Source: Candidatus Uhrbacteria bacterium
GTDB taxonomy: Bacteria; Patescibacteriota; Patescibacteriia; UBA9934; GWF2-40-263
DNA: 64,000 nt
Direction: 5' to 3'
NCBI GenBank assembly: GCA_016188425.1
Contig: JACPHX010000002.1
Location: 2,373 to 66,372, forward strand
Under the pieces are notes generated by a model. That model did not search any database, was not told the DNA's origin, and was given only the letters and a program-made list of their open reading frames with translations. Below, one piece after another: positions 21,684-48,022 of this stretch. The first letter of the stretch is position 1. Each line of letters opens with the position of its first letter. The position numbers and the translations under genes are program-made.

Positions 21684-22214
21684 TCAGTTGGCTGACATCG
21701 TCCCCAACACCAGTTCCACCGCTTTCTCTTCCTCCAAGAAAACACTCACGATAATCAAGGATTCGTTTCGTTCAAAAACATAATGGGTCTTCTCAAGCCC
21801 CGCCGTCTGGGTGGTGCTGACAATCCTCTTGGCTGCGACGCCCCCGAGCTCGACATCCTCTATGGATTTCACTTCGTCCTTATTGTTCTTGATCGCCTCG
21901 ACAAAACCGTCCGTCGTAAGGCCCTTCGCCGCGTAAAAGTACGCGAGACTGATAGGCTTGTCCTCGCGCACTGTATCGCGCAGCGAGAGGAAGAAATCGA
22001 CATCCAGGCCAAGGTATTTGTACGCGCGTGTGTCCTTGTCTCGCAGATGGGTTTCCATGTACCCGGGGAAACGGAACGAGAACCCGTAATCGGCATCCTC
22101 GTATTTTTCCTTGAATTCGGGTGAGGCCACTGGCTTCACTTCCTCCTGTTTCCCCCACGTACATCCTGCTCCCAGGAGGAGCATCAGTCCGGCAACCGCA
22201 AATAGTTTTCGCAT
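21684..22214 (-). CDS. Hypothetical lipoprotein
   Basis: Signal peptide with lipobox LLGAGC. 176 aa, no recognised domain. Confidence 0.5.
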   Translation of the reverse strand: MRKLFAVAGLMLLLGAGCTWGKQEEVKPVASPEFKEKYEDADYGFSFRFPGYMETHLRDKDTRAYKYLGLDVDFFLSLRDTVREDKPISLAYFYAAKGLTTDGFVEAIKNNKDEVKSIEDVELGGVAAKRIVSTTQTAGLEKTHYVFERNESLIIVSVFLEEEKAVELVLGTMSAN

Positions 22215-22215
22215 A

Positions 22216-23487
22216 TTATTCGTTTACGAACATCATCAATTTCTCCGTGATGTCGGCCAGTGGCACCAGGCGGCTTTCCGCTTCTGTGCGGCCCTTCCAT
22301 TCAATCATCCCGTCGGCCATCGTCCGCCCCGAGAGGACAAGACGCAAGGGGAAGCCCAGAAGATCCGCCGAGGAGAACTTCTCCCCAGGCGACGCATCCC
22401 GATCGTCCCAGAACACCTCGATCCCCTGCTTGGTCCATTCCTCATACAGCTCCGCCGCCCGTTCGCTGACCTGCCGCTGCACTTCCGGATCTTTATTAGA
22501 AAGCGAGACGAGCGTGACCGCAAACGGCGAGACGGACTTGGGCCAGATGATCCCCTTCTCGTCATTGAACTTTTCCACGATCACTCCCATAACACGCGAG
22601 ATCCCGATCCCGTAACAGCCCATGATGGGAAATTGCTTATTGCCATCCGCATCAATGAATGGCAAATCGAAGTCCTGGCCATACTTCGTCCCAAGGTCGA
22701 ATACGTTCCCGACCTCCGACGCGCGCGCCGACTTCAAGGCGCCATCCTGTTTGCGAGGACACGCGTCCCCTTCCTTTACGGTGGCGATTTCTTTGTTCAC
22801 GCAGAAGTCGCACCGCTCGCAGTAGAGGATGTCATCCTCACCCGCATCCGTCAGTACCATGAACTCGTAGGACACCTTTTTGGAAAACGCGCCGCCGGAC
22901 GCTTCCGTCACTTTCGCCGTGAGTCCAAACCGCGAGAACAGGCGGAGGTAGACTTCCTTCGCCTGTTGGTAGAACCGGTCGAAATCTTCCTGGGAAGTGT
23001 GGAAACTGTACATGTCCTTCATGAAAAACTCGCGCCCGCGCATGATGCCGCTCTTGGCGCGCAACTCGTCGCGGTACTTCCAATGGATCTGGTAGACAGC
23101 CAAGGGAAATTGCTTGTAGCTCTTTGCCCGCGACAATACGAGCGGCGTCACGATCTCCTCTTCGCTCTGCCCCAGCGCATACTCGTTGCCGGTACGGCTC
23201 TTGATCTTGAAGAGGACGTCGATACTGTCCCAGCCGCCTGTCTTCACCCAAGGATCTTTAGGATGGAGCGTCGGCATGAGCACTTCCTGCCCGCCAAGTT
23301 TGTTCATCTCTTCACGGACGATCGCCTCGATGCGGCGCAGTACGCGCAATCCCAATGGGAGATAAGAATACACGCCCGCCATGAGCGGATCAACGAACCC
23401 TCCTTGGATGAGGAGGCGGGCATTAGCAGTATCGGCATCGTGGGGGGCTTGGCGTTCCGTTTTGGTAAAGAGGTGGGAAGAGCGCAT
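22216..23487 (-). CDS. proS: Prolyl-tRNA synthetase (class II; no long editing insertion)
   Basis: Class II motifs (FRDE...REFxMKDxYSFH, GCYGIGISR motif 3). Start re-placed at MRSSHLFTKTERQ. Confidence 0.9.
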   Translation of the reverse strand: MRSSHLFTKTERQAPHDADTANARLLIQGGFVDPLMAGVYSYLPLGLRVLRRIEAIVREEMNKLGGQEVLMPTLHPKDPWVKTGGWDSIDVLFKIKSRTGNEYALGQSEEEIVTPLVLSRAKSYKQFPLAVYQIHWKYRDELRAKSGIMRGREFFMKDMYSFHTSQEDFDRFYQQAKEVYLRLFSRFGLTAKVTEASGGAFSKKVSYEFMVLTDAGEDDILYCERCDFCVNKEIATVKEGDACPRKQDGALKSARASEVGNVFDLGTKYGQDFDLPFIDADGNKQFPIMGCYGIGISRVMGVIVEKFNDEKGIIWPKSVSPFAVTLVSLSNKDPEVQRQVSERAAELYEEWTKQGIEVFWDDRDASPGEKFSSADLLGFPLRLVLSGRTMADGMIEWKGRTEAESRLVPLADITEKLMMFVNE

Positions 23488-23723
23488 AGGGGAAGGGCGG
23501 AAAGGGTTGAAAGTGCGGAAAGGATTTAGAAAAACAAGACGGCCCTGTTCGAATAAAGCGTAGCAAATATAGGCGGAGATGCAAAACACCCGTGTCCGGG
23601 CAACCCCTCTTAATCTCCCCTTGGCAGGGGAGATCGAGCTCGTGCTGCGTTCCGAACGTAGCGGCGCGGCTTTAGCCCGCCATCCGGTGAATCGGATGGC
23701 ACGGTAAAGGGATGCCGCTAGTT

Positions 23724-23811: not shown

Positions 23812-24267
23812 CTAACGGCGCTTGCGGCGCGGCTGGTGCATGCCGGACGTGCGTCCGGCATTGGAGATCATCCGCGTCTCGGAAACGGCGCGGTGAAGCC
23901 GCTCGACGAGCACCTGACGCTCGACGGCCGTGAGCTTGCGCTCGGGCTTGGCCACGACGATCGCGGGCGCCGTCTTCTGAACGGGAACGTCGACGACCTT
24001 CGGGGCCGGCTTGGTCGCTTGGACGTCGACTTCACGGCGAAGACCGAAGCGCGAGCGCTCCGGCTTGACGTCGAACTTGATCGACTCGACGAGCTCGCGC
24101 TCCTCCGAGGTCAATCGACCCTTGCGACGCTCCTCGGAAACAGCCGAGGTCTGGTTTGAATTGTGATGAGAAACGGGAACCATGCGGGTTCCCTGACGCC
24201 TGAATCCAGTCTGATTGAAGATCATGAAGATCCTCCGTGGCCCGGGACGGCCGAACAATTGGCGCAT
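23812..24267 (-). CDS. Hypothetical highly basic protein (Arg/Lys-rich)
   Basis: ORF with a strong terminator. No family recognised. The start is uncertain. Confidence 0.35.
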   Translation of the reverse strand: MRQLFGRPGPRRIFMIFNQTGFRRQGTRMVPVSHHNSNQTSAVSEERRKGRLTSEERELVESIKFDVKPERSRFGLRREVDVQATKPAPKVVDVPVQKTAPAIVVAKPERKLTAVERQVLVERLHRAVSETRMISNAGRTSGMHQPRRKRR

Positions 24268-24418
24268 TCAAGCACCAAAGCCCTTATTCAACGCGTAAAT
24301 GGCGCCAAATAACGGCCTTTGTGCGTATCTATTTGAACAAATTAACTTGCAAATATACAAGAAAATATAGGTTTTGTCAATAGTCACCGAGCAAAAACAA
24401 AAAGGGCTTGCGTTGCCC

Positions 24419-24916
24419 TTAGTTTACGAACGCCTCACGAAGCGTAGGTGCATTGAGTACCTTACGAAGAGCCCCACGGAACTGTTCACCGTGATCGGGC
24501 AGGATGGAATAGAGAGTGCCGCCTACGTCCTGGCACAAGATCTCCAAGTTGATCTCTGCGAAGAGTACCTGGATACGAACCGGGATGTGGCCCAATAGGT
24601 CGATCGTTGTGTGTAACGACGCCCTCTTAAACAGGGCTTCGTCTGCCTCTTTATTGGGGTATCCGTCCGTCAAACGAACGAACAGGACGACGAGATCCTT
24701 TTGAGACAGGATATCAGCCGCCAGGCGAGAAACCTGCAGGCCGACACCTGGCGGCAGGGAGACAGATCGCCGCTTCTCCATCACGCGAAGATTTTTCACT
24801 TCCCTGCTCTGCGACAGATACTCGCCCTCGATGATCGCGACGCGATCTGGGGGCGGAGGAGCAAATCGCTTGAACGTCTTCAACAAGGGGTACAATTTCA
24901 GGAAACGAGCATTCAT
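24419..24916 (-). CDS. Hypothetical protein
   Basis: 165-aa ORF heading the surface operon; no recognised domain. Confidence 0.35.
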   Translation of the reverse strand: MNARFLKLYPLLKTFKRFAPPPPDRVAIIEGEYLSQSREVKNLRVMEKRRSVSLPPGVGLQVSRLAADILSQKDLVVLFVRLTDGYPNKEADEALFKRASLHTTIDLLGHIPVRIQVLFAEINLEILCQDVGGTLYSILPDHGEQFRGALRKVLNAPTLREAFVN

Positions 24917-24974
24917 TATGTAACCTCCGTCTCATCTATGAGACACGGAACCCTAGCGCGAATAGTGCGAAGCG

Positions 24975-25865
24975 TCAAGGAGCGGGTGGGCGCCTCGACC
25001 GTCGTGATGATTTTAATTCTGGATACTGAATCTTTTTCCCTTGCGGGCAGCTACACGCCCGCTCGCTCTTATAAAGCCGGTACGCCGCCCGCCGCCAGAA
25101 GAAAAAGAACAGAGCAGCCAACAGAAGAAACAGCCAATTGAAAAGCCAAACCGACTTTGGACGAGGATGCAAAACCGTCACCGACGGGCACTGTGGCAGA
25201 GGCAGCGTCGCGGTCGGAACAAGCGGGAGGCAGCTTGGAGCTAGGATGGGGGGAGGAAGGAGGGGGGAGGTTGGAGGGGGGGGAGTGTCCGGCGGAGCCG
25301 GATCCGGCTCCGCCGGAGAGAATGACGGGGGGGAGGTTGGAGGGGGGGCGGCAATCGTGAACGTTGCGTTGCGAACTTGGCGGACGATATTTGTTCCTTC
25401 CCCGTCGCCAGAAAGCACGGAGGCGTTTTGGAACCGAATATCTGCCCGACCTTCCTTGAGCGTCTTAAACTCTGCCGTGAAGACCAACCCGTCGGATCCG
25501 ACGAATCCACCAGGCGTCAAATCGACTCCCGTGAACTGTATCGTCCCTTGCCCGCGATCGATAAACGGTTCCCGGAACCAGTGGCTGATGATAGTCCCCT
25601 CTGTCGTAATCCCTGTCGCCTCGACCAGTTCAGACGGAAACACGATGGCACCCTCAACGGCATTCACGGGAGTATCTGTTTGCACAAACACATGCACGGT
25701 GAAGGTTTGACCAACCATGAACGCTCCCGAGGCCGGAGCGAGTTCTATCGAAGCGGTTGCGGCGGAGACGGAAAAAGCGGGCAGCAGGCAGCTGGCAGCA
25801 AGCAGCAACGCAAAAAACAGCGAAGTCAATGGCCTTGCTATTCCTTTGAACGTTTTTTCCTCCAT
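24975..25865 (-). CDS. Membrane-anchored surface protein with a cohesin-like domain, Pro-rich stalk and C-terminal TM anchor
   Basis: Signal peptide. A ~125-aa beta-sandwich region matches cohesin topology (VGQTFTVHVFV...VNAVEGAIVFP...GTIQFTG...DGLVFTAEFKTLKEG). PPPTSPP stalk. C-terminal FLLLAALFFFFWRRAAYR anchor. Confidence 0.5.
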   Translation of the reverse strand: MEEKTFKGIARPLTSLFFALLLAASCLLPAFSVSAATASIELAPASGAFMVGQTFTVHVFVQTDTPVNAVEGAIVFPSELVEATGITTEGTIISHWFREPFIDRGQGTIQFTGVDLTPGGFVGSDGLVFTAEFKTLKEGRADIRFQNASVLSGDGEGTNIVRQVRNATFTIAAPPPTSPPSFSPAEPDPAPPDTPPPPTSPLLPPPILAPSCLPLVPTATLPLPQCPSVTVLHPRPKSVWLFNWLFLLLAALFFFFWRRAAYRLYKSERACSCPQGKKIQYPELKSSRRSRRPPAP

Positions 25866-26755
25866 ACGATTGCAGATATCATACCAAGAATCAGGAGCAG
25901 CGTCCCAGCGATAAGCCGAACGTCCATCCGATCCCAGAACAGGAGCGGAATTTCTACCGATGACATTTTCACATTCCCTGCCGCATCCGTGACACGAATG
26001 TACACGGTCTTCCCTGCCCGCGATGGTTGGTACACGTCCCCTCCTTTCACCCAGGACGTATCGGACGGAGGCTCGCCGTCCGTTTCTTGGTATTCAATCG
26101 AGGCGATCCCCGTCTGCGCGTCAAACGCGCGTACAGAGACCAACGGGTGGCCCTCGGTCGCTTGGGTGCCAGGAATCTGTTGAATAGTTTCAATCGTGGG
26201 CAGCTGATGATCCGCAACTGGAGCAGGTAAACCTTGCTTTGATGTCACCGCCACCTCCATGGAGGCGTCGCGAGTCACGGGTGTGGCCCCCCCATCGCTC
26301 CCCAGCATGCGTACGCTTCCGAGCGTCAATGACACGTCTCCGCTCTGCAGGGTGTCGAAAGAGATAGAAAAGAGCGTCCCGACTCCCGTGAACCCTCCCG
26401 GGATCATCGCCGCAAAAGGGATCCGCCCGTCCTCTGCGCTGGGACGTTCTATCCAAAGCGCGTTTAGCGAGGAACCTGTTTGCACCACTCCAGGAAGCAG
26501 CTGCAAGACAGGATAGGAAAGCTCTCCCTCGATGGCATTCACCGACTCCCCATGCGTATCAATGACGACGTCAACAGTGGTCGTCGCCCCGATGCCTGCA
26601 GTGGGATGAAGGGTCACCATCCCGGCAGCGACGGAGCGCGGGAGGATGCACAAAAACAACAGAACCACATACGCAATAGCCCATGGCCGACGGCAGACGC
26701 CATTTTTTTTCAGAGAGTTCCCCTCTTCTGTTTGTAAAATGTTTGTCATATTCAT
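25838..26755 (-). CDS. Paralogous membrane-anchored cohesin-like surface protein
   Basis: Same layout: signal peptide, cohesin-like domain (TTVDVVIDT...VNAIEGELSYP...GTLFSISFDTLQSG), extra Ig-like region, C-terminal TM plus KKRSKE. Confidence 0.5.
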   Translation of the reverse strand: MNMTNILQTEEGNSLKKNGVCRRPWAIAYVVLLFLCILPRSVAAGMVTLHPTAGIGATTTVDVVIDTHGESVNAIEGELSYPVLQLLPGVVQTGSSLNALWIERPSAEDGRIPFAAMIPGGFTGVGTLFSISFDTLQSGDVSLTLGSVRMLGSDGGATPVTRDASMEVAVTSKQGLPAPVADHQLPTIETIQQIPGTQATEGHPLVSVRAFDAQTGIASIEYQETDGEPPSDTSWVKGGDVYQPSRAGKTVYIRVTDAAGNVKMSSVEIPLLFWDRMDVRLIAGTLLLILGMISAIVWRKKRSKE

Positions 26756-28095
26756 TCTGTCCAGTTGGCGGCCATGATACTGAAATCAATGAGATCGATG
26801 ACGCCGTCATTGCTCAACGCATTCCCTTCAAACACCCGCGCAAACTCGGAAAGCGGTTTTTTGTACCAATAAGCGGCGATGGAGAAATCTTGCAAGTTCA
26901 CCAGACAATCTCCATTCAGATCCCCCCGCCTTGGACAAACCCGATGCGGCGGCTGCACGGATGTCTCACCGACCTCAAACGAAGCCGCGATCCCAAGCTG
27001 GCTTACCTGCCCATCCACATGCACCTGCGCGCGCGCCACATGCGCTCCAGCATCGAACCCTGCCAACGCAAGGGTATACGCGAACGCCCCGTTTGCATCC
27101 GAGTGCGTCGAAACCTGTTGCTCTGCAATGGAATCGATCACGATATCAACATCAGCGCTCGGAGCCGCGAAGCCGCTTAAGATAATGCTCCCGAAAGAGA
27201 GCTGGGTCAGGTAATTGCTCACCAGCGTCGGGGGAAGGATGATGCCAGACACGGTCGTGCTGGAATTCGCTGTGACCAATTTTGATCGTGTATATAAAGC
27301 AGAACGATGCGTCAGAGGATCGATGGCGTAGAGGGCAAAATCATACCACCCTCCCACAAACCCCAATGCCTCCACAGAAAAACGTCCGGACGCATCCGCT
27401 TTGGCAACCGAGAGCGGCAACGTGTCTTTCAACAAAAACACATCGACGCTTGGATACGCGACTCCCTCAAACTTGATAGACGTCTTGGACGTCGTACTCC
27501 CATCCGCTCCGCCCCCTCCCCCGCCGCCCCCACCTCCACCCCCGCCACCTCCTCCTGCGCCTACGGGTACCGCAAATACCTCTCCCGACCGCGAAAGGAT
27601 CTCCCCACCGACCACAGACTCAACGACAAAATAATACGTCGTTCCATTTACGAGACCCGCGCTTGAGTACAGAAGTACATTGCCGACATTGGTAAACGTG
27701 TAGGGTCCTCCGGAAACCAGCGAGCGGCCGACACGGTACGATTCGACAGTTCCATGCGTCCCCGCGCTCGCAGTCCACAGCAGATCCACTTGTGCATCCC
27801 CGGGAGTCGCGGTCACCACAGACTCCGTCGCAAACGGGAAATACTCATACCCGGATTTCAACCCAAAAGAAGCAGAATCGCTCGCTCCAGGAGCCGCCTC
27901 CCCCATGGCTCCCAACATCTGGAACGAAGCGGACGAAGAGGTGCCACCCGCCTCCGTCACCGCTGGCTTTTTCAATTCAAAAGAGGGAGAGGTGTAGATG
28001 GACGAGGCAGACGCAGGACGCATCGCAAACAGACCGGCGAGAAACACGAACGCCGATGTTCGAAGGATCCACCGATGAAAGGATGTCTGGCGCAT
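26752..28095 (-). CDS. Secreted FN3 / poly-Gly-linker / Ig-like protein with a C-terminal dockerin module
   Basis: Signal peptide, FN3 (LLWTASAGTHGTVESYRV...GTTYYFVV), an 18-Gly linker, C-terminal duplicated Ca-binding loops DLNGDCLVNLQD and SNDGVIDLID typical of type-I dockerin. Confidence 0.55.
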   Translation of the reverse strand: MRQTSFHRWILRTSAFVFLAGLFAMRPASASSIYTSPSFELKKPAVTEAGGTSSSASFQMLGAMGEAAPGASDSASFGLKSGYEYFPFATESVVTATPGDAQVDLLWTASAGTHGTVESYRVGRSLVSGGPYTFTNVGNVLLYSSAGLVNGTTYYFVVESVVGGEILSRSGEVFAVPVGAGGGGGGGGGGGGGGGGADGSTTSKTSIKFEGVAYPSVDVFLLKDTLPLSVAKADASGRFSVEALGFVGGWYDFALYAIDPLTHRSALYTRSKLVTANSSTTVSGIILPPTLVSNYLTQLSFGSIILSGFAAPSADVDIVIDSIAEQQVSTHSDANGAFAYTLALAGFDAGAHVARAQVHVDGQVSQLGIAASFEVGETSVQPPHRVCPRRGDLNGDCLVNLQDFSIAAYWYKKPLSEFARVFEGNALSNDGVIDLIDFSIMAANWTE

Positions 28096-28096
28096 G

Positions 28097-28540
28097 TCAG
28101 TAGGTCACATCTACCTCCGCTTCACGGATCACGAGCGCCGTAGTCGTGCTGTAAAGTATGGCCTTGTTCGCCTTGGGATAAATAATAACGCGATCCCCCT
28201 CCTTAGCTCCCACAAAAAACGGCTTGCCATCAAGGGGAGCCAGGTCGCGGATGGTGGCAACGGTCGGCTCCTCATCGTCTGGTAACGCCGTCTGATTTCC
28301 CACGGTCTCTAACAGCCGCCGGATCGATTCCTGTTTTTCTATATACGAATCGCGCCGTGCTTCCGCCTGGTTGCTGGAGGCCTTTGTAAGACTAAGCTTG
28401 TAGGCAACAAACCATCCGCCACCGATCAAGGCGAACATAAGCAGAGGCCCCAACACGAACAGAACCGGGTGATGTTGTGCCGCGGTTAGTTCTGGCGGAG
28501 GCAGGCCAGAAGGAGGATACCGTTGGATCGGAGTGGGCAT
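28097..28540 (-). CDS. Hypothetical single-pass membrane protein
   Basis: 147 aa, one TM helix (VLFVLGPLLMFALIGGGWFVAY), tightly packed in the operon. Confidence 0.4.
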   Translation of the reverse strand: MPTPIQRYPPSGLPPPELTAAQHHPVLFVLGPLLMFALIGGGWFVAYKLSLTKASSNQAEARRDSYIEKQESIRRLLETVGNQTALPDDEEPTVATIRDLAPLDGKPFFVGAKEGDRVIIYPKANKAILYSTTTALVIREAEVDVTY

Positions 28541-28549
28541 ACAAACAGG

Positions 28550-31500
28550 TTACGGCGCCACGAGCTCTGCCGGAGCTTCTTCCGGCGCCGGCGCTTCAGG
28601 GGCTGGGGTAGGCGGCGCCTCAATCACGGGAACCGCAACAGGCACGTCCTCGACGACAGGTACCACCTCGGCGGCATCGTCTGTCGTGGCTGCATCTGGA
28701 GCGGGTTCAATTGGGGTCGGTTCTTCTTGGGCAGGATCCTGCTCCGCGCTGCTACTCCCCGGCTCTTCCGAAGGGGGGACCTCTGCCTCATCTTCTGAAG
28801 ACAAAGGTTCTTCAAATCCAGATGTTTCCGCCTCTGCAGGAACCGATTCTGCCTCCGGCTCCGTCCTGTGGACAGGGTCAGCTTCCGCCGAAGGCGCCCT
28901 TCCGTTGGTGATCCCGTTGTTGCGGCTGATGTTTCCATCCTTCACTGCAAGGGCGATCCAGCTGAAATTCAATTCCTGCGGAGCATCGACGTCGATGCTG
29001 ATATTGAACCCAAGCTTGGATTTGTTCGTGACGATATAGCGCAGACCGGAGCCAAAGATACTATCCATGCCCATGTCGCCGGATTCAAGCGAGAGGGTGA
29101 TGTTCACCGAAGGATCGTGGAGATAGGGCTCGGCAAAATCTACACGCACCGAACGCTGGCCTTGCGCGACCGCCGCGAACCCTGCCGTGTCTATATTGGC
29201 GGCGGCTTTACCGAACAACAAATCGCCATACACAATCGTTTCGGGGCTTGTGGCAGAACCGACCTGATCGAGCTCAAGCCCGCCGCCTAAGAGCAAGGAA
29301 CCGGAGACGACGAGCGATCCTTCCGCTTCTGTCGCGGACGAAACCAATGCTGATGTTCCACCCCATGGCGCGCTCGCCGAGAGGAACAACACCACGTTTC
29401 CTTCTCCTTCCCCGTCATATTCACTCATCGCGCGGCCGATAATCGGGGATCCTACTCCCGCCTTCACCGCGACGCCGTTCTTCCCAGAGGAGGTCAGATA
29501 ATCTCCTACATGGATGATGCCGTTCGCGGCAGAAGCGCGGACGGACACGCGCCCCGTGATCGCGACGCGAACTCCGTCAAATGTACCGTTACTAACCTCC
29601 ACGCCGGACGTTTTTGTAACGACGCCCACCATGAGGTCATCGGCGGCGAGTTTTGAAGGCTCGACTTTGGGGCCTTCTCCCGTCAAAGAGACGATCGTTC
29701 CCTCGGGGATTTCGGTGTTATCCGACGGGAACATCTGTGTCATGGCGCTCCCGGTGGAAAAATCCGCCGTCACTTTCTTGAGTTCCCAAGATTCTTTCAT
29801 GCCGTCGATGCCCAAATCCGTCTGGGCGGGGGTCAGGTCTTCCGCATCGGCGGGAGCCCCCTCTGGCGTCGCGGCATCGGCAACGGCCGCCTCGGGGGTC
29901 TGTTCATTGTCATCCTGCCACGCGCGGAAAAAATCGACGTCCATGGAGCCGCTCGCGCCGCCCGAGCGAGACTGCCAGTGGAACATCGGCGCCAAGCTTA
30001 TGGTCGGGATATTCGTCGAGCTGCCACCGTCGCACTCGGTGAAAGCCACCCCGTCGCTCACATCCGGATCGATAAAGAAATGGACATCGGAGGTGGAGCG
30101 GACTTCAACCATCATCAATGCGTACTGGGAAGTGGAAACGGTTTGTCCCGCGCACGCGACCGTCGTCTGCGTCCCGCCGGAAATGGTCACGCCGGCCCAT
30201 GTCGTCGACCCTTCCGTAGAAAAGCCGATGAAGTTCGTCGGAGCCGCCGTTAATCCGTCCGTCGAATCCGCCATGCCGGCATAGGCATAGAAATTCGCCC
30301 CCGTATTGTTCGGACGAAGCTTCATGAGCATGACGGGCAGGTTGTCTGCGTCCAAAACGGAACGCGCGTTGTTGAGCGCATCGTCCATCATCAACAGACA
30401 TCCGTTGCCTGAACCCGTGTTTGCTATGTTCACAATCCCGTTGATCGCATCATTGGTTGAAGTAAAGGTGCAGTTGGCATTCTCGTACGCCCCCCATCCG
30501 CCGCCGTCCCCGAGACCTGTTCCGGAAGCGCCGGTCGTATCTACCGTGATCGTTGTGCGCTTTTTTGAAAATTCCTCCTCGATTTTGGAGTTCCGATCGA
30601 TAAATGCGCCGGCGTTCATGGCCAACCCGAAATTCGTGTTGATATCCCGCGCCTGCAGCAGGTTATTCGTGCCATCGCTCCAAGCAAGCAGCCCGGCATC
30701 GACGAATTGCCAGGTGGGCGTCGAGCTGCGGAAACGAATACCGTCGCCGAACTGCGCCTGGCCGATCACTTCCAGTTCATCCGCCACGCGCAGGTCGCCT
30801 GCCCCACCGGACGCATAGCTGAACGCGGAATCGGATCCGACAATCACAGCAGCCGTGTTGTAGAACAGTCCGTTGGCGCCCACGGACCAGGCTGAACCCG
30901 TGATATCGCTTGTAAAGGCGACCGTTCCGGACCCATCCTTGAACGTAATCGTGCGGTCCGCCGTCGGCTCGATGAACGCGAACGTCGTCTCGTTGGCGTC
31001 TGCGACGGCGCCTTCAAACGTAAGCGGCGTCGTACCGCCGCCGATCGTGGCCGTAATCGTAAAAATATCGGACGCGGCATTCCCGATCGCGGTATTTCCG
31101 TTCACCGTAAGATCGCCTGCCGTGAGGACATCGCCCGTTGTTCCGGAGACGGTAAAGTTGGACGTATCGACCGCCATGCCGCCATCCAAGTTTACAAGCG
31201 CGGCGGTAGTCGCTCCGCGCCCGGTCACGGAGGCGAGCGTGGATGTATTGTTCACCGTGACGGTGTCTGTCGCGGAGGTCACGACGTTGATATCCGTTCC
31301 ATCGACGAATGTCATCGTGTCGCCATTGCTGATGGTCTGCGGAGTCGTGCCATCGGTGATGGTGAATGCGACGCCTCCGGAGGTGAGACAGGTGGCGCAG
31401 CCGATGTCGCCTGCCGCGCTTAAAGTAACCGGGGACGTTGCGGACACCGCCACGGTACCAGAGGCATTGGGGAACGTGATGGTTCGATCGGCCGTGGGAT

Positions 31501-31843
31501 CCGCGACCGCAAACGTGGTTTCAAACGCATCTACCGTCGCCCCCTCAAAGACAAGCGGTGAGCCGCCAAGCACGGTCGCATTGAACGTGACGGTATCTGC
31601 TGCATCGGAACCGATGTAGGCATTTCCAATAACTTCGATCTCATCTGCCACGCGTAAATCACCAATGCCACCGGAGGCGAAGCTGAACGCAACATCGGTG
31701 CCGACGATCACCGCCTTGTCATCTTCAAAGACGCCCATCGCGCCATCTTCCCAAAGATTCGTTCCGATGTCGGAAATCCGCAAAGGCGAACGTCGATTCA
31801 AAGGCATCAACCGTTCCCCCTTCAAAGACAAGTGGGGATGCAC
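28550..31843 (-). CDS. Giant beta-strand-repeat surface protein, distal fragment (modules plus an acidic Pro/Glu-rich tail)
   Basis: Repeated modules SPLVFEGATxDAFETTFAxxDPTADRTITFxxASGTVA. The N-terminal 119 nt overlap the upstream ORF in another frame. Confidence 0.55.
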   Translation of the reverse strand: MHPHLSLKGERLMPLNRRSPLRISDIGTNLWEDGAMGVFEDDKAVIVGTDVAFSFASGGIGDLRVADEIEVIGNAYIGSDAADTVTFNATVLGGSPLVFEGATVDAFETTFAVADPTADRTITFPNASGTVAVSATSPVTLSAAGDIGCATCLTSGGVAFTITDGTTPQTISNGDTMTFVDGTDINVVTSATDTVTVNNTSTLASVTGRGATTAALVNLDGGMAVDTSNFTVSGTTGDVLTAGDLTVNGNTAIGNAASDIFTITATIGGGTTPLTFEGAVADANETTFAFIEPTADRTITFKDGSGTVAFTSDITGSAWSVGANGLFYNTAAVIVGSDSAFSYASGGAGDLRVADELEVIGQAQFGDGIRFRSSTPTWQFVDAGLLAWSDGTNNLLQARDINTNFGLAMNAGAFIDRNSKIEEEFSKKRTTITVDTTGASGTGLGDGGGWGAYENANCTFTSTNDAINGIVNIANTGSGNGCLLMMDDALNNARSVLDADNLPVMLMKLRPNNTGANFYAYAGMADSTDGLTAAPTNFIGFSTEGSTTWAGVTISGGTQTTVACAGQTVSTSQYALMMVEVRSTSDVHFFIDPDVSDGVAFTECDGGSSTNIPTISLAPMFHWQSRSGGASGSMDVDFFRAWQDDNEQTPEAAVADAATPEGAPADAEDLTPAQTDLGIDGMKESWELKKVTADFSTGSAMTQMFPSDNTEIPEGTIVSLTGEGPKVEPSKLAADDLMVGVVTKTSGVEVSNGTFDGVRVAITGRVSVRASAANGIIHVGDYLTSSGKNGVAVKAGVGSPIIGRAMSEYDGEGEGNVVLFLSASAPWGGTSALVSSATEAEGSLVVSGSLLLGGGLELDQVGSATSPETIVYGDLLFGKAAANIDTAGFAAVAQGQRSVRVDFAEPYLHDPSVNITLSLESGDMGMDSIFGSGLRYIVTNKSKLGFNISIDVDAPQELNFSWIALAVKDGNISRNNGITNGRAPSAEADPVHRTEPEAESVPAEAETSGFEEPLSSEDEAEVPPSEEPGSSSAEQDPAQEEPTPIEPAPDAATTDDAAEVVPVVEDVPVAVPVIEAPPTPAPEAPAPEEAPAELVAP
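31636..31775. repeat. 140-nt identical block of a ~600-nt tandem gene-internal repeat; partner at 32236-32375
   Basis: Exact 140/140 identity at a 600-nt offset, flanked by ~90%-identical sequence. Confidence 0.85.
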
Positions 31844-33713
31844 CTAAATAGACCGCTCCGGTGAAGTCGTAGTTCCCAGTTCCCGTGTCTCCCGTGTTAA
31901 AGAGGAACACATCGTTGACGTTGACCGAGTCCCCGCTGACCGTGGTATTCGTTCCGTTGGAAAGATTAGTGTCATCCGATATATCCACCGATCCATTCGC
32001 AATCATCGTTCCGGTCACGGAACCGGCATCTCCTGTCGTCACAACCGTGCCGGTGACGTCCGGGACTGTAATGACGCGATCTGCCGTCGGATCGGTGATG
32101 GCGAGTGTTGTCTCGAACGCATTCGCCGTGGCTCCTTCAAAGACAAACGGGGAGCCGCCCAGGATGGTTGCATTCAATGTGACGGTATCCGCCGCATCGG
32201 ATCCGATGTACGCATTGCCAATGACCTCGATCTCATCTGCCACGCGTAAATCACCAATGCCACCGGAGGCGAAGCTGAACGCAACATCGGTGCCGACGAT
32301 CACCGCCTTGTCATCTTCAAAGACGCCCATCGCGCCATCTTCCCAAAGATTCGTTCCGATGTCGGAAGTCGGATCCGCGAACGCGAACGTCGATTCGAAA
32401 GCGTCAACGGTTCCTCCTTCAAAGACGAGCGGGGACGCGCCTTGCAGCACCGCTCCCGTGAAGTCATAATCCCCCGTTCCCGTATCACCTGTGTTCATCA
32501 AGAACACGTCGTTCACATCAATCGAATCCCCGTTGACGGTGGTATTCGTCCCGTTGGAAAGATTCGTGTCATTCGAGATATCCACCGACCCGTTGGCGAT
32601 CATCGCCCCTGTGACGGAACCCGTGTCACCTGTGGTCACGACGGTGCCGGTGACGTCTGGGAAGGTAATCGTCTGATCCGCAGTAGGATCCACGAGAGCC
32701 AGAGTCAACTCAAACGTATCCGCCGTGGCGCCTTCCAAAACCCAAGGAGCTGCGCCGAAAAAAACAGCGCCGGAAAAATCATAGTTCCCCGTCGCGACAT
32801 CGCCTGTGTTGAAAAGATAACTGTCGGCGATATCAAGCGTGACCGTATCGGTAATGCTGTCCCCTGTAACAGTGATGTTTGCTGATCCAGCAGAGAGGGA
32901 AAGCGTGTCCGTCGCCGAATCAGCGACTGGGGCCGTTCCAGACGTGGTCGCGATCGTCTCAAAAAGATTCTGCGAACCAGCAATATCGGAAAGGAAGGCG
33001 ACGGTTCCGCTCGCATCCTGAAAGGTGATCGTCCGATCCGCGGTCGGATCCGTCATGGCGAACGTCGTCTCGAACGCATCTGCCGTCGCACCCTCAAAGA
33101 CGAGCGGCGACCCGGTCTGCAAAGACGCGCCGGAAAAATCAAAATCCCCCGTGGCGGTATCGCCCGCACTGGCAAGGAAATCCGCCGCTCCCATCCCTTC
33201 CAGGGTCCCGGCGTTTATCGCGTAGCCAGACGAACGGATCCTCTGGCGTGGAGAGAGGTTTTCAAACACAGCCAAGGCACAGGAACCCGCTACCTGATCC
33301 CCGACCTCCACGTTGAGATAGGCCTCGTCAGTGGATTGGAAATTGAAATCCAGAAGATCCCCGCCTGCGCCCACATCGCCGATACCCGCGGTAAAGACGC
33401 CCTCTGTCACTTCGATGGTCATGGTCGAGGGCGCGCCAGCCGGCCACAGCTGCGCATCCCCCCCTCCGACCGTTTCATCATCAAAAAACGAAAATTTGAA
33501 ACAGTAATCCGTTCCGCTGGAGCCACCCAATAAATTCCCAGAACCATCCAATAGTCTTCCTTGATAGGTTACTTCTTCCGGAACGCCAACCGCCGCGCGC
33601 GCAGCGAATGCTGGAATGAAATACGACAAAAACACGACAAGCAAGGCCGTGGTAGTGATTTTAAAAATTCCCTTTTGTCTTCGGTGCATGAGTGCCTCCA
33701 CAAAATGGAACAC
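31725..33713 (-). CDS. Giant beta-strand-repeat surface protein, proximal fragment with signal peptide
   Basis: Signal peptide (KITTTALLVVFLSYFIPAFAARAA), same module family. Ends in an out-of-frame tail (FRHRNESLGRWRDGRL) where a paralogous repeat reads PTSDIGTNLWEDG. Confidence 0.55.
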   Translation of the reverse strand: MFHFVEALMHRRQKGIFKITTTALLVVFLSYFIPAFAARAAVGVPEEVTYQGRLLDGSGNLLGGSSGTDYCFKFSFFDDETVGGGDAQLWPAGAPSTMTIEVTEGVFTAGIGDVGAGGDLLDFNFQSTDEAYLNVEVGDQVAGSCALAVFENLSPRQRIRSSGYAINAGTLEGMGAADFLASAGDTATGDFDFSGASLQTGSPLVFEGATADAFETTFAMTDPTADRTITFQDASGTVAFLSDIAGSQNLFETIATTSGTAPVADSATDTLSLSAGSANITVTGDSITDTVTLDIADSYLFNTGDVATGNYDFSGAVFFGAAPWVLEGATADTFELTLALVDPTADQTITFPDVTGTVVTTGDTGSVTGAMIANGSVDISNDTNLSNGTNTTVNGDSIDVNDVFLMNTGDTGTGDYDFTGAVLQGASPLVFEGGTVDAFESTFAFADPTSDIGTNLWEDGAMGVFEDDKAVIVGTDVAFSFASGGIGDLRVADEIEVIGNAYIGSDAADTVTLNATILGGSPFVFEGATANAFETTLAITDPTADRVITVPDVTGTVVTTGDAGSVTGTMIANGSVDISDDTNLSNGTNTTVSGDSVNVNDVFLFNTGDTGTGNYDFTGAVYLGASPLVFEGGTVDAFESTFAFADFRHRNESLGRWRDGRL

Positions 33714-33810: not shown

Positions 33811-33888
33811 TGGTGCGGGCAGAGGGAGTCGAACCCCCAACCCTCAGCTTCGAAGGCTGATGCTCTATCCAGTTGAGCTATGCCCGCC
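33811..33888 (-). tRNA. tRNA-Arg (anticodon TCG), CCA encoded
   Basis: Reverse complement GGCGGGC-ATA-GCTC-AACTGGATA-GAGC-A-TCAGC-CTTCGAA-GCTGA-GGGTT-GGGGG-TTCGACT-CCCTC-TGCCCGC-A-CCA. Confidence 0.8.
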
Positions 33889-33889
33889 T

Positions 33890-34135
33890 ATGGCTGGAGG
33901 CCCTAGAATCGCGATCTGCTGGCTTACGTCTCCGCGCCAGGCCTCAACGTACCATTGAGGTACGCCTCGGCCTGGTGCTCGCCGTGCGCCAGCATCTCAT
34001 CGATTCTAGAGCCTCCAGCCCGATGTGTTCGTGTGAATAATGGCCTAGATCCATAACGGCCGGAGCGCCTAGAATCGCGATCTGTGGCTTGCGCCGACAT
34101 TTCAATGATTCTAGGCATCCCGGCCTTTTGTTTGT
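33890..34135. repeat. Two inverted-repeat-bounded elements sharing a CCTAGAATCGCGATCTG core, between tRNA-Arg and tRNA-Lys
   Basis: GGCTGGAGGCCCTAGAATCG...CGATTCTAGAGCCTCCAGCC (33891-34019) and GGCCGGAGCGCCTAGAATC...GATTCTAGGCATCCCGGCC (34057-34135). Confidence 0.5.
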
Positions 34136-34197
34136 GGCCGAACTTTAGCAACTTTCTTGACGATGCGCAAGAATATTGGCATTCTTTTCGCACCTAG

Positions 34198-34273
34198 GCA
34201 CTGGTAGCTCAGCTGGTAGAGCAGCGGACTCTTAATCCGTTGGTCGCGGGTTCGAATCCCGCCCGGTGCACCA
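34198..34273 (+). tRNA. tRNA-Lys (anticodon CTT), CCA encoded
   Basis: GCACTGG-TA-GCTC-AGCTGGTA-GAGC-A-GCGGA-CTCTTAA-TCCGT-TGGTC-GCGGG-TTCGAAT-CCCGC-CCGGTGC-A-CCA. Confidence 0.85.
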
Positions 34274-34610
34274 GCATAAAGCCATCAACTTGAGTAGCTG
34301 CAGAATCGGCAGAGGTCTGCCGGCCCCTGTGGATAATCTAGTTGGTGGCTTTTTGTTTGCAGATTTGATGGGTTACTTGCTTTCTCTCTATAAAAAGAGG
34401 GAGGATGGGACGGTTCGAATCCTCATTGCCTCAAACTGTCATTGTGTATGCCACTCGAACCTAAACCGAATTCACGCGTTTCAATCACAAGCCTTAAATC
34501 GAGCCATATCAAACGCATCCGCGCAGCCATTGAGAAGGAATCTGGCCAGCTGCTCGATCTTACCGATACGGAACTGGAGGTGTATGCGGTGGAGATTTTG
34601 AGAGCGATGG

Positions 34611-34928
34611 ATGTTGTATATTTATGAAACAATGACTCCCCATTCTATGAATGTAGATCATGTTATTCTACTTATTTCGTTAGGAATACCTGCTTGTTTG
34701 ATTGCATTCTGTTGGTGCGTTTTACTTTTTACGATGCGTAGGACTACTGGTGAATTGAGACTATTTCTTTCCGCGGAAAATCTGGTTAAAGGCATGGTTG
34801 TTATATTTGTCTTACTAACTACAACTGCCCTGAGTATTCTGGGCATACTCTCGGGCGAGTTAGCTGGTACTATTATTGGTGGCATTATTGGATATACTCT
34901 TGGAACTAAGTTTTCTGTGGAAAAATAG
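34611..34928 (+). CDS. Island small membrane protein (2-3 TM)
   Basis: AT-rich ORF with hydrophobic helices (ILLISLGIPACLIAFCWCVLLF; VVIFVLLTTTALSILGIL). Confidence 0.4.
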   Translation: MLYIYETMTPHSMNVDHVILLISLGIPACLIAFCWCVLLFTMRRTTGELRLFLSAENLVKGMVVIFVLLTTTALSILGILSGELAGTIIGGIIGYTLGTKFSVEK

Positions 34929-34932
34929 TAGT

Positions 34933-35151
34933 ATGAAAATTTTGCTCAGTATGTTGGTGGCGGTCGGATTCGTTGTGGGAATAATCATTGGCGGTTCTCT
35001 AAAAGGTAAGGAGAACTCGGATTGTTATAAGTTTTCTCTGCTCCAAGCCGTGTCCCAGGTTGATCAAGGTGGTTATATTGCTGATGTGCAGGCTCGACAA
35101 AAGGCACAAGATGAAGCGTTGGTTCCGTTACTCACGACTTGCCTCCAATGA
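34933..35151 (+). CDS. Island small single-TM protein
   Basis: MKILLSMLVAVGFVVGIIIGGSL... 72 aa; the ATG was checked. Confidence 0.35.
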   Translation: MKILLSMLVAVGFVVGIIIGGSLKGKENSDCYKFSLLQAVSQVDQGGYIADVQARQKAQDEALVPLLTTCLQ

Positions 35152-35226
35152 TAAGATACATGTTTCAATGCCACTCCTTTCGTGTTGATTGATGTTGCAA
35201 TTTATCGTACGCTGGAAAAAAGACTT

Positions 35227-35415
35227 ATGGATCTCAAACAACAGTTTTTGAAGGTGTATTCAACGCTTCCTTTAGGCATACGTAAAGAGATCGTGATTGT
35301 TTTAGATGCGCCGGTGGGACCGGTCAGTTGGGAGGCGGCATACCTCGAAGTTGAAAACCGTACCGCTGTTTCCGAAGTGATTCTAACGAAGCTTCACGAG
35401 CTTCAAATCATATGA
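35227..35415 (+). CDS. Island small protein A (62 aa from the ATG; alternative GTG start at 35182)
   Basis: First gene of a coupled triplet; its stop overlaps the next start (ATGA). Confidence 0.4.
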   Translation: MDLKQQFLKVYSTLPLGIRKEIVIVLDAPVGPVSWEAAYLEVENRTAVSEVILTKLHELQII

Positions 35416-35645
35416 CCGACAATCAAAAAATCGATACACGGTACTCGGATGAAGAAATCCGTAAGTTGGTCGTGGCGCGACTCTCCGTGCTTTCTTCAGA
35501 TATGCAGATTTCGATTGGCTCCTCTGGTACCTTTACGCGTGACGAGCTCATTGGGCACGTGAACGCAAACGATGATCTTGGACGGAAGATCGAAGAGATC
35601 GAACTCGAGTGGTTGCGCTCGTGGAAAGATAAGGCACACGTATGA
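35412..35645 (+). CDS. Island small protein B (77 aa)
   Basis: ATGA overlaps on both sides. No recognised family. Confidence 0.45.
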   Translation: MTDNQKIDTRYSDEEIRKLVVARLSVLSSDMQISIGSSGTFTRDELIGHVNANDDLGRKIEEIELEWLRSWKDKAHV

Positions 35646-36283
35646 TGCTTGTGACGCGGCCAGACTACGATCCGGCGACACGGTATCTTTCCGCATGGTC
35701 TTCCATCTTGATGGAGGAGGCAGAGCGTCGAAAATTACGAGTCATTGATCTTCCGGGCGAGAAAGCAAGAAAGGCCGACCTTGTGGGTCGGATCAACAAA
35801 TTAAAGCCTGATTTACTCGTCTTGAACGGGCATGGGAGCGACGAATGTATTGCTGGACAAGATGCGGAGGTTCTCGTGAAGGCCAAGGACAACGCCGTGC
35901 TCCTCAAAGGAAAGGTGACGTACGCGGTCTCCTGCAATTCCGCCGCTGTTTTGGGAGAGGAAGTCGGCACCTACTCTGACACGGCGTATATAGGTTTTGA
36001 GAATGAATTCGCGATAATCCAATCGCAGGACCATGCGAGCCGTCCCCTGGATGATCCGTTCGCGAAGCCCTTCATGGAATTTTCGAATCAGGTGGTGACG
36101 GGTCTTCTTAAAGGACACAAAACAGCGGAGTGTGTGAGTCGTGCGAAGGAGACGGGTAAGGCGAAGATCAACGCGCTTCTCACCAGCGATTCCGATCCTG
36201 ACAAGCAGGCGATCGCACGGTATCTTTGGTGGGATATTCAAGGACTTGTGTGTAAAGGTGACCAGAATAAGAAGATATTATAG
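35642..36283 (+). CDS. Island protein C: alpha/beta protein with an HG...C putative catalytic dyad (caspase / clan-CD-like or DJ-1/PfpI-like cysteine hydrolase)
   Basis: Hydrophobic strand + NGHG (PDLLVLNGHGSDE), then ~35 aa later hydrophobic strand + Cys (KVTYAVSCNSAAV). 213 aa. Confidence 0.4.
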   Translation: MMLVTRPDYDPATRYLSAWSSILMEEAERRKLRVIDLPGEKARKADLVGRINKLKPDLLVLNGHGSDECIAGQDAEVLVKAKDNAVLLKGKVTYAVSCNSAAVLGEEVGTYSDTAYIGFENEFAIIQSQDHASRPLDDPFAKPFMEFSNQVVTGLLKGHKTAECVSRAKETGKAKINALLTSDSDPDKQAIARYLWWDIQGLVCKGDQNKKIL

Positions 36284-36332
36284 AAGAAAATTCGCAACCA
36301 GTGTTTCGACTTCATCCACGTTAGTGCACCAG

Positions 36333-41456: not shown

Positions 41457-41457
41457 A

Positions 41458-41775
41458 TCAATTTTGTTTCTTCAAAAGTTCGGTAAGGGCAGAACGAATC
41501 TCGGTGTCACCGGTGGCAGAGGGCCGAAGTTCGGACTCCTCCCCTGCCAAGGGGAGGGCGGGTGGGGTCGCCGCTGGTTTTAGCGCCTCCAATGTATCCT
41601 GCGCCTGCAGACTCACATCCCCATATCCCGCCTTGAACACATCCGTCACCCCCGCAAACGCCCCTTGCATGAACGCAGCCCAAGCAACGACGATCCCTAC
41701 GGACAAAAACGCGCTCCCTCCATAAAGAGACCACCGCTGAAACTTGGTCGGCTGACGGACAAAACGTACATGCAT
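41458..41775 (-). CDS. Hypothetical small membrane protein
   Basis: One TM helix ([16 protein letters not shown]); directly upstream of gyrA. Confidence 0.4.
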
Positions 41776-47975: not shown

Positions 47976-48022
47976 AGTCCGCCGCCCGTTGTGGTATCAT
48001 CGACGGGTGAAACCTCTTCTCT

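Follow-up and report, generated by a model that had tools for sequence, protein, structure and literature searches.

A probable non-cellulosomal cohesin-dockerin surface-display operon in Candidatus Uhrbacteria and other Patescibacteria

Apart from a few Saccharibacteria, in which type IV and Pam pili have been studied, little is known of how the ultrasmall Patescibacteria (the candidate phyla radiation, CPR) attach to their hosts. Here we describe an operon of seven open reading frames (ORFs), G1a to G6, on the minus strand of a 64,000-nt stretch of DNA from Candidatus Uhrbacteria bacterium (the window, whose positions serve as coordinates throughout), and we judge it reasonably likely that this operon encodes a non-cellulosomal cohesin-dockerin surface-display module conserved across Patescibacteria. 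This reading rests on folds, domain identities and a near-invariant gene linkage: the gene of a protein that ends in a predicted dockerin, G3, adjoins those of two membrane proteins, G4 and G5, to which cohesin domains are assigned. The genes are as follows:

31725-33713, minus strand: G1a, 662 aa, NCBI HYV73_00240, first part of a giant repeat protein
28550-31843, minus strand: G1b, 1097 aa, NCBI HYV73_00235, second part of the giant protein
28097-28540, minus strand: G2, 147 aa, one transmembrane helix
26752-28095, minus strand: G3, 447 aa, predicted dockerin protein
25838-26755, minus strand: G4, 305 aa, NCBI HYV73_00220, cohesin-type protein
24975-25865, minus strand: G5, 296 aa, cohesin-type protein
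24419-24916, minus strand: G6, 165 aa

The ORF list bears out the gene order, strand and domain content given in an initial annotation of this DNA. That annotation had neighbouring genes overlapping by 1-28 nt, which applies only to G3/G4 (4 nt) and G4/G5 (28 nt), the remaining junctions being gaps of 9, 1 and 58 nt. When the seven proteins were scanned directly with Pfam and NCBIfam, nothing significant emerged, and family profiles and structure models were needed for identification. In a scan of one genome per species, at least 352 genomes carry a G3 relative, the best 80 of them being almost all Patescibacteria metagenome-assembled genomes (MAGs). Locally built profiles were searched against all ORFs of related loci, of which 85 were first collected, 84 of them distinct (L002 duplicates L001).

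Dockerin and cohesin assignments

G3 is laid out as a signal peptide, an N-module, an FN3 domain, a Gly16 linker, two Ig-like domains and a C-terminal dockerin, and its AlphaFold2 (AF2) model has a predicted local distance difference test score (pLDDT) of 81.7:

27817-28005, minus strand: N-module, residues 31-93, conserved, with three 'S.SF' motifs
27571-27816, minus strand: FN3 domain, residues 94-175
27508-27555, minus strand: poly-Gly linker, residues 181-196
26968-27480, minus strand: stalk of two Ig-like domains, residues 206-286 and 297-376
26755-26937, minus strand: predicted dockerin, residues 387-447

We found 144 homologues of G3 at E<=0.001, the best of them full-length with about 40% identity; many carry PF00404 (about 45 of 120 listed), PF17936 or PF00041, and for a few the name given by NCBI is dockerin protein. 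Since a Foldseek search with the whole G3 model gave only generic tandem FN3/Ig arrays as top matches, the dockerin was tested by sequence profile. The G3-family profile matches solved dockerins in the PDB (2y3n_B, E=1.1e-8; 5nrm_B, 2.8e-6; CelS 1daq/2mte, 3e-5), and these matches span profile positions 3-56 of 59, both loops included. By this comparison the G3 C-terminus is a two-loop dockerin with duplicated segments of about 22 residues. The family C-terminus, with the consensus 'GDLN.D..VNL.DFSIAAYWYKR ... LNGDGKIDL.DFSIMAYYWTG', contains the internal duplication 'D.N.D...(N/D)L.DFSI.A..W', and in G3 a 'DFSI.A..W' helix comes after both loop 1 and loop 2 (helices modelled at residues 401-409, 417-426 and 435-446, pLDDT 83-95). 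Both dockerin-like loops quoted in the initial annotation are present, and Ca-loop geometry is found in them: loop 1, DLNGDCLVNLQD, fits in full the pattern D1-x-N/D3-x-D5...D12, while loop 2, ALSNDGVIDLID, agrees with it at positions 5, 9 and 12 but carries A as its first residue and S as its third, the family consensus for this loop being 'LNGDGKIDLVD'. We also observed a conserved Cys pair around loop 1 in many family members ('CP..GDLN.DC', with 'C..DLNCDG' in others; residues 387-397 of G3, positions 26905-26937), which may form a disulfide stabilising the first Ca loop, an arrangement unusual among dockerins.

Upstream of the dockerin, the two stalk domains are modelled with pLDDT 91-98, and their homologues carry PF17936 Big_6 or PF19077 Big_13. 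The Gly-rich linker, described initially as Gly18, is a run of 16 consecutive Gly (tract GAG16) and is kept at the same place across the G3 family. The FN3 domain (Pfam fn3, E=0.043) has modelled strands of pLDDT 88-95, and residues 30-85, in the N-module, are modelled with pLDDT <50 although they are conserved; this module was found only in G3-family ORFs. The display logic of the family keeps stalk and dockerin constant and swaps the head: the long form has the N-module and FN3, and in the short form a Cys-rich 'CGNG..GEQCD' head replaces both, the rest of the protein (Gly linker, both Ig domains, dockerin) being retained. Short-form heads, seen for instance in L064, L067, L075, L080 and L085, occupy the N-terminal ~100 aa, with the pattern 'CGNG..E.GEQCD...C...GY.GG.L.C...C.FN...C', which we take to resemble Myxococcus-type Cys-rich repeats.

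The partner proteins differ in what lies between cohesin and membrane. G4 comprises a signal peptide, a cohesin, an OmpL47-type Ig-like domain, a transmembrane helix and a short basic tail, and G5 a signal peptide, a cohesin, a Pro-rich stalk, a transmembrane helix and a basic cytoplasmic tail:

26240-26626, minus strand: G4 assigned cohesin, residues 44-172
25946-26200, minus strand: G4 Ig-like OmpL47-type domain, residues 186-270
25862-25921, minus strand: G4 transmembrane helix, residues 279-298
25350-25763, minus strand: G5 assigned cohesin, residues 35-172
25152-25349, minus strand: G5 Pro-rich stalk, residues 173-238
25095-25151, minus strand: G5 transmembrane helix, residues 239-257

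The two are paralogous, as first annotated (30% identity over 131 aa, E=6e-12); the Pro-rich stalk that had been ascribed to both is present in G5 only, G4 having the OmpL47-type domain before its transmembrane helix instead. The AF2 model of G4 (pLDDT 85.4) consists of a signal helix, a nine-strand sandwich (residues 45-171), a second Ig-like domain and a C-terminal transmembrane helix. In a Foldseek search of the PDB, cohesins make up 17 of its top 19 matches, with template-modelling scores (TM-scores) of 0.52-0.75 except for the two-domain construct 2w1n (0.46), and this cohesin+FN3 construct is the best match (E=7.8e-7). G4 aligns on 2xdh with a TM-score of 0.75 (24% identity), on 6kgc_A with 0.74 and on 2jh2/2vo8 with 0.71-0.74, all at probability 1.00; the type II cohesins 2bm3, 5k39 and 4fl4 are among the matches, and the two non-cohesins in the top 19 are RbmA and a designed cytokine-receptor complex. 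As modelled, the N-domain of G4 is a cohesin fold, in agreement with the cohesin-like beta-sandwiches of the initial annotation. The G5 cohesin is assigned by alignment to G4 and by the family cohesin profile (186 bits), the structure model being that of G4 only.

Among homologues, P0004 reaches 34 bits on Pfam Cohesin (cut-off 24.1), and 17 of 65 G4 relatives of ~290 aa match that family at E<=0.01. Given that Pfam Cohesin matches some relatives but neither G4 nor G5, cohesin membership is placed at superfamily level, through intermediates and fold. A five-sequence cohesin-domain profile retrieves 10,607 representative proteins or clusters at E<=0.001; the family profiles match PDB sequences weakly, and cohesin modules of cellulosomal scaffoldins and anchoring proteins recur in both searches. 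The most strongly conserved cohesin strands are beta3, beta5 and beta6, three of the four in the canonical 8-3-6-5 dockerin-binding sheet, and it is possible, judging from this conservation, that they form the dockerin interface. G4 orthologues of ~290 aa occur in all related loci, and 31 of the 65 relatives carry the OmpL47-type domain. G5-type relatives are 390-600 aa long with extra middle domains. We considered that G5 might be a frameshifted gene or pseudogene, and rejected this, as no reading frame of the window encodes the relatives' middle domains and G5 is a genuinely short Pro-rich variant. In G5-type relatives (e.g., L006, 12096-13589) the transmembrane helix is followed by a long, highly charged tail, where the tail of G5 is short and basic; the charged cytoplasmic tail, probably helical, suggests a connection with some intracellular component.

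Linkage of dockerin and cohesin genes

The results show that a cohesin-like ORF lies directly 3′ of the dockerin gene in every one of the 79 loci for which 1 kb or more of sequence follows that gene. Where enough downstream sequence is available (65 loci), there are two cohesin genes in 50, three in 11, one in 3 and four in 1. The reverse look-up, starting from five cohesin proteins, found a G3-family dockerin gene immediately upstream in each of the five. The dockerin profile matches only G3-family ORFs in all 85 loci, with one dockerin per locus, and in the whole window cohesin-like domains occur only in G4 and G5 and a dockerin module only in G3. Those of the best 80 loci with informative titles belong to Patescibacteria, including Uhrbacteria, Kaiserbacteria, Magasanikbacteria, Nomurabacteria, Minisyncoccia and Candidatus Microsyncoccus archaeolyticus PMX.50 (an enriched organism with a short-form operon, L080), many of the 80 titles being uninformative or unreliable MAG labels. 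The operon sits in varied housekeeping contexts in many species. Because the dockerin-cohesin pairing recurs in hundreds of species, it is probably a general surface-display device rather than a cellulose-degrading machine, and the pairing of G3 with G4/G5 is supported indirectly by this genomic pattern.

In one locus (L098, 698-2758) both cohesins are fused into a single 686-aa protein encoded directly after the dockerin gene, and two-cohesin proteins of 530-970 aa were also observed among P0125-P0136. Such fusions are a Rosetta-stone-type hint that G4-type and G5-type cohesins may act together. In another locus (L099, 5686-6789), the second cohesin protein carries an S-layer homology (SLH) domain. 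SLH domains are the wall anchor of cellulosome anchoring scaffoldins.

Several points weigh against the display reading. Pfam Cohesin gives no match for G5 (E<=1) or for the isolated cohesin domains of G4 and G5 (E<=10), and G3 alone scores 11.5 bits on Pfam Dockerin_1 (cut-off 22.9). In loop 2 of the G3 dockerin, position 1 is not acidic and position 3 is S, which makes Ca binding there uncertain. A crude hydrophobicity test finds a C-terminal transmembrane segment in only 93 of 165 cohesin ORFs. The giant protein, described below, is frameshifted in this assembly and has no dockerin, and only 31 of the 59 loci evaluable upstream have a giant ORF in the 2.5 kb before the dockerin gene. As the genes of the operon share a phylogeny, their linkage shows functional coupling and not direct contact. 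The essential 'dockerin' of Southlakia, SEML1_0315, was set aside, being a stand-alone 927-aa protein beside hydrolase and tRNA genes and not part of this operon, and in the literature we found no paper describing this conserved CPR operon.

Some of these points also feed a rival reading, in which the modules are co-regulated without binding one another: the cohesin-like proteins would be structural proteins of the envelope or wall, or glycan-binding proteins, and the EF-hand pair would bind Ca or some other partner, for instance the S-layer, a glycan of the host or the giant fibre. G3, G4 and G5 each fall under Pfam thresholds on their own, loop 2 is degenerate, cohesin-like sandwiches resemble carbohydrate-binding module and Ig folds (some of the G4 Foldseek matches are of FN3 or RbmA type), and synteny by itself is no proof that G3 touches a cohesin. 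Yet the Foldseek and profile matches are specifically to cohesins and dockerins, the two kinds of gene adjoin in 79 of 79 loci and in five of five reverse checks, and conservation is highest in the dockerin helices ('DFSI.A..W') and in strands 3, 5 and 6 of the cohesin, as expected of a conserved interface. We therefore regard the absence of mutual binding as unlikely.

Giant protein, accessory genes and genomic setting

The giant repeat protein had been annotated as one ORF with repeat modules; the modules are there, seven in number, and the ORF is split into G1a and G1b, which overlap by 119 nt. The break lies at the following site:

31770-31780, minus strand: frameshift site, where 5 nt (CCGAC) of the upstream repeat copy are missing near 31775/31776

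At the split the repeat spacing is 592 nt versus 597 nt, and pairwise alignment of the repeat copies gives a 5-nt gap followed by 75 identical bases. The region is a tandem duplication of ~600 nt (31452-32075 versus 32044-32672), with 100% identity just past the gap and 79-84% elsewhere. This pattern fits gene conversion, slippage or repeat mis-assembly. With the 5 nt restored, G1 would be a protein of ~1721 aa with seven 'FEGAT.DAFETT..DPTADRTITF' modules. G1a carries five fibre modules, preceded by a signal peptide whose hydrophobic core spans residues 19-37 and by a 'YQG...SGYAINA' N-domain, and G1b two more modules, regions assignable to no family, a conserved C-terminal domain (~residues 840-1000) and an acidic Pro-rich tail.

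Against the PHROG database, G1a matches phrog_38058, a tail fiber (E=7.5e-11), and phrog_8215, a baseplate wedge initiator (E=9.6e-9), and there is a weak match to NCBIfam Bdello_MAT_N; by these profile matches the G1 modules are homologous to phage tail-fibre proteins. G1a has 4638 homologues, many with PF18454, and further Pfam families also occur among them. For G1b no match was found in Pfam (E<=1) or among PDB sequences. Its C-terminal domain is shared with the giants of four related loci (L001, L003, L004 and L005; E=1e-15 to 1e-21), an H-type-lectin-like C-terminal domain is no more than hinted at in a relative (E=0.045), and the giant relatives of L001 and L005 carry Peptidase_S74 upstream of the domain shared with G1b. 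In these respects G1 resembles phage tail fibres and the mosaic adhesive trimer (MAT) fibres of Bdellovibrio; it differs from them in having no detectable S74 and in being encoded by a chromosomal gene whose operon also contains the cohesin and dockerin genes. No dockerin (by the dockerin profile) and no Peptidase_S74 (by Pfam, E<=1 for G1b) was detected in G1, which also shows no transmembrane anchor. The initial suggestion that the giant adhesin might itself be displayed on the cohesins is not supported, the giants here and in the 85 related loci being devoid of a dockerin, and any display of G1 on cohesins would consequently have to be indirect.

Between the giant and dockerin genes lies the small transmembrane protein already noted at first annotation, G2, a single-pass membrane protein (transmembrane residues 26-47) with a conserved outer domain of ~70 aa and no match to any family or PDB entry. 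Orthologues with 36-44% identity occupy the same position in L001 and L003-L005, and G2 lies upstream of G3 in 30 of 53 long-form loci versus 0 of 19 short-form loci. At the other end of the operon, G6 has no signal peptide, no family match and no homologue in the 85 related loci; it is probably co-transcribed with the operon but is lineage-specific and outside the conserved module. The next ORF after G6 (23812-24267), tried as an operon member, was rejected, having no homologue in related loci.

The operon is bounded by tRNA-Arg (33811-33887, minus strand) and by a terminator-like hairpin:

24402-24420, minus strand: terminator-like hairpin with T-run, after G6, ending the transcription unit (consensus scan only)
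24380-24352: strong promoter-like site of the next gene (consensus scan only)

Terminator-like sites are no more frequent in this region than expected from shuffled sequence. The flanks are housekeeping genes, with ProRS, RNase Y, TruB and IF-2 on one side and RNase III, NusB and GyrA on the other. From 34001 to 36300, between tRNA-Arg, tRNA-Lys (34198-34273, plus strand) and the housekeeping genes that follow, GC content is low (0.47, compared with 0.55-0.59 in the surroundings). This stretch, which may be an integrated island, contains several small ORFs on the plus strand, and the one scanned (35642-36283) has no Pfam match. Antisense to ProRS and GyrA there are long ORFs (22111-23529 and 39174-41486, plus strand, and similar ones) that have no family match and are most likely spurious, resulting from the high GC content. 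A homologue of the PilB-type type IV pilus ATPase is encoded 14 kb from the operon (48011-49747, plus strand; E=1.5e-101 to the PilB of L001). A conserved link to type IV pili was considered and rejected, as a PilM/N/O/B/T cassette lies just downstream only in L001, and among the 85 collected loci just two more (L047 and L059) have a PilB homologue within 10 kb.

This setting bears on another alternative, that the operon is a prophage or phage-derived tail-fibre cassette inserted beside tRNA genes, or else a miniature polysaccharide-degrading cellulosome. The tail-fibre and baseplate-type modules of G1, together with tRNA-Arg, tRNA-Lys and the low-GC stretch just upstream, would suit a phage origin; against it stand the lack of other phage genes between the housekeeping flanks, the varied housekeeping contexts of the operon in many species, and the lack of any full-length G3 in 2.9 million viral contigs (IMG/VR), where only generic FN3 matches were found. 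As for a cellulosome, cohesin-dockerin pairs are classically cellulosomal, but no glycoside hydrolase or other enzyme domain occurs in the window operon or in the Pfam-annotated related operons examined, and each locus has a single dockerin. Either version seems to us very improbable.

Comparison with known systems and proposed mechanism

The Pam pilus of Candidatus Mycosynbacter amalyticus, described in a 2026 preprint, is built from donor-strand pilins, with transmembrane-anchored PapD-like chaperones and a co-located tail-fibre-like gene (10.64898/2026.03.03.709456). Like the operon described here, it is CPR-specific and Sec-exported, with Ig-like modules, accessory proteins bearing C-terminal transmembrane helices and a tail-fibre-like gene nearby. 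In addition, the G3 N-terminus is remotely similar to the pilus tip protein PamT (NCBIfam NF058579): residues 14-110 align on profile positions 7-103 of 241 with 18.9 bits, short of the equivalog cut-off of 240. By contrast, PamA, PamB and PamE pilins and PapD-like chaperones were not detected in the G3 operon, and NCBIfam, which may not model every Pam protein, gave no match to PamA/PamB-type pilins or PapD-like chaperones in the seven operon proteins or the 65 G4 relatives. Pam anchoring is by donor-strand exchange, whereas that of the G3 operon would be by cohesin and dockerin, and the titled relatives of the G3 operon are mostly of Paceibacteria/Parcubacteria type rather than Saccharimonadia or Microgenomatia, many MAG labels being unreliable. 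We read the similarity between G3 and PamT as a probable shared head module and not as membership of the Pam system.

The alternative would be that the operon encodes a variant of the Pam-type (chaperone-usher-like) CPR pilus, with G3 as a tip or pilin-like subunit whose disordered N-module takes part in strand complementation. The PamT match (E=7.7e-4 for G3 of the window; E<=0.01 in 11 of 49 relatives, 1.6e-9 at best) speaks for this, as do the conservation of an N-module modelled at pLDDT <50, as for a segment that folds on a partner, and the appearance among G4 Foldseek matches of RbmA (E=3.5e-4), the fold assigned to PamR; PamC, PamD and PamR also have C-terminal transmembrane helices, and a tail-fibre-like gene accompanies pam operons (10.64898/2026.03.03.709456). 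However, no operon protein matches any other Pam model, PamT is matched far below its cut-off, and no PamA- or PamB-like pilin is encoded. The N-domain of G4 aligns on cohesins at a TM-score of 0.75, with RbmA matches at only ~0.2 and no PapD-like chaperone in the top 50 Foldseek matches. Moreover, the Ig and FN3 domains of G3 are modelled complete and not strand-deficient, and the ATP-synthase neighbourhood typical of pam operons is not seen among the scanned flanking genes in the window. A Pam variant is, in our estimation, quite unlikely.

Under the favoured cohesin-dockerin reading, the closest structural counterparts of G4 are non-cellulosomal: the Archaeoglobus fulgidus cohesin (2xdh) and, from Clostridium perfringens, the GH84C cohesin+FN3 and toxin-complex dockerins (2w1n, 2jh2, 2vo8 and 2ozn). 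They share with the operon a cohesin followed by an FN3/Ig-type domain, a two-loop EF-hand-like dockerin and a context free of cellulose degradation. Unlike them, the cohesins of G4 and G5 are carried on single-pass membrane proteins with C-terminal transmembrane anchors, the dockerin protein bears no enzyme, and one dockerin and about two cohesins form a fixed operon in at least 352 species genomes. The cellulosome anchoring scaffoldins (SdbA, OlpB and OlpC of C. thermocellum, which have type II and type I cohesins and SLH anchors) offer a parallel in which a cell-bound cohesin captures a dockerin-bearing partner, and the SLH domain on one relative's second cohesin protein recalls them; in G4 and G5 the anchor is a transmembrane helix and not SLH or sortase, many-cohesin scaffoldins and enzymes are lacking, and the genome of the bacterium is small, its lifestyle being presumed epibiotic as is typical of its group.

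Based on these comparisons, we propose the following model. The operon proteins would be exported by Sec, because of their N-terminal signal sequences. G4 and G5 would remain in the cytoplasmic membrane as type-I proteins, with the C-terminal helix in the membrane, the basic tail inside and the cohesin facing outward, borne on the Ig-like domain in G4 and on the Pro-rich stalk in G5. G3 would be released, and we infer that its two-loop, Ca-binding dockerin plugs into the cohesins of G4 and G5, a step whose Ca dependence, stoichiometry and choice of cohesin are likewise conjectural. The G3 stalk, with its two Ig domains and poly-Gly hinge, would then project the variable head from the cell. As the PamT-like N-module and FN3 head co-occur with G2 and G1, we infer that G3 may be an adaptor joining the G1 fibre, or the target of that fibre, to the cell, in an assembly that may serve host-cell attachment.

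A bolder extension, which we put forward tentatively and consider rather doubtful as a whole, is a CPR-wide plug-and-socket attachment organelle. In it, the G3 dockerin would bind G4 and G5 at once, giving a membrane-embedded socket for an exchangeable head, and in the long form the PamT-like head would grip a trimeric, phage-derived G1 with the help of G2. The same head would then present a tail-fibre adhesin, in Saccharimonadia from the end of a Pam pilus and in Paceibacteria-type organisms (e.g., Uhrbacteria) straight from a cohesin socket. Simultaneous binding of both cohesins by the two near-identical halves of the dockerin would explain why the cohesin pair is conserved and sometimes fused.

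If the display reading is true, a Ca-dependent cohesin-dockerin joint would anchor to the membrane a stalk protein of modular build and possibly an adhesin resembling a tail fibre, and cohesin-dockerin biology would extend from enzyme scaffolding to cell-cell attachment in organisms whose locus has no glycoside hydrolases. With the G3 stalk or dockerin, CPR surface complexes could also be labelled or pulled down. The operon provides, for a large uncultivated part of the CPR, a concrete hypothesis that is testable with recombinant proteins.

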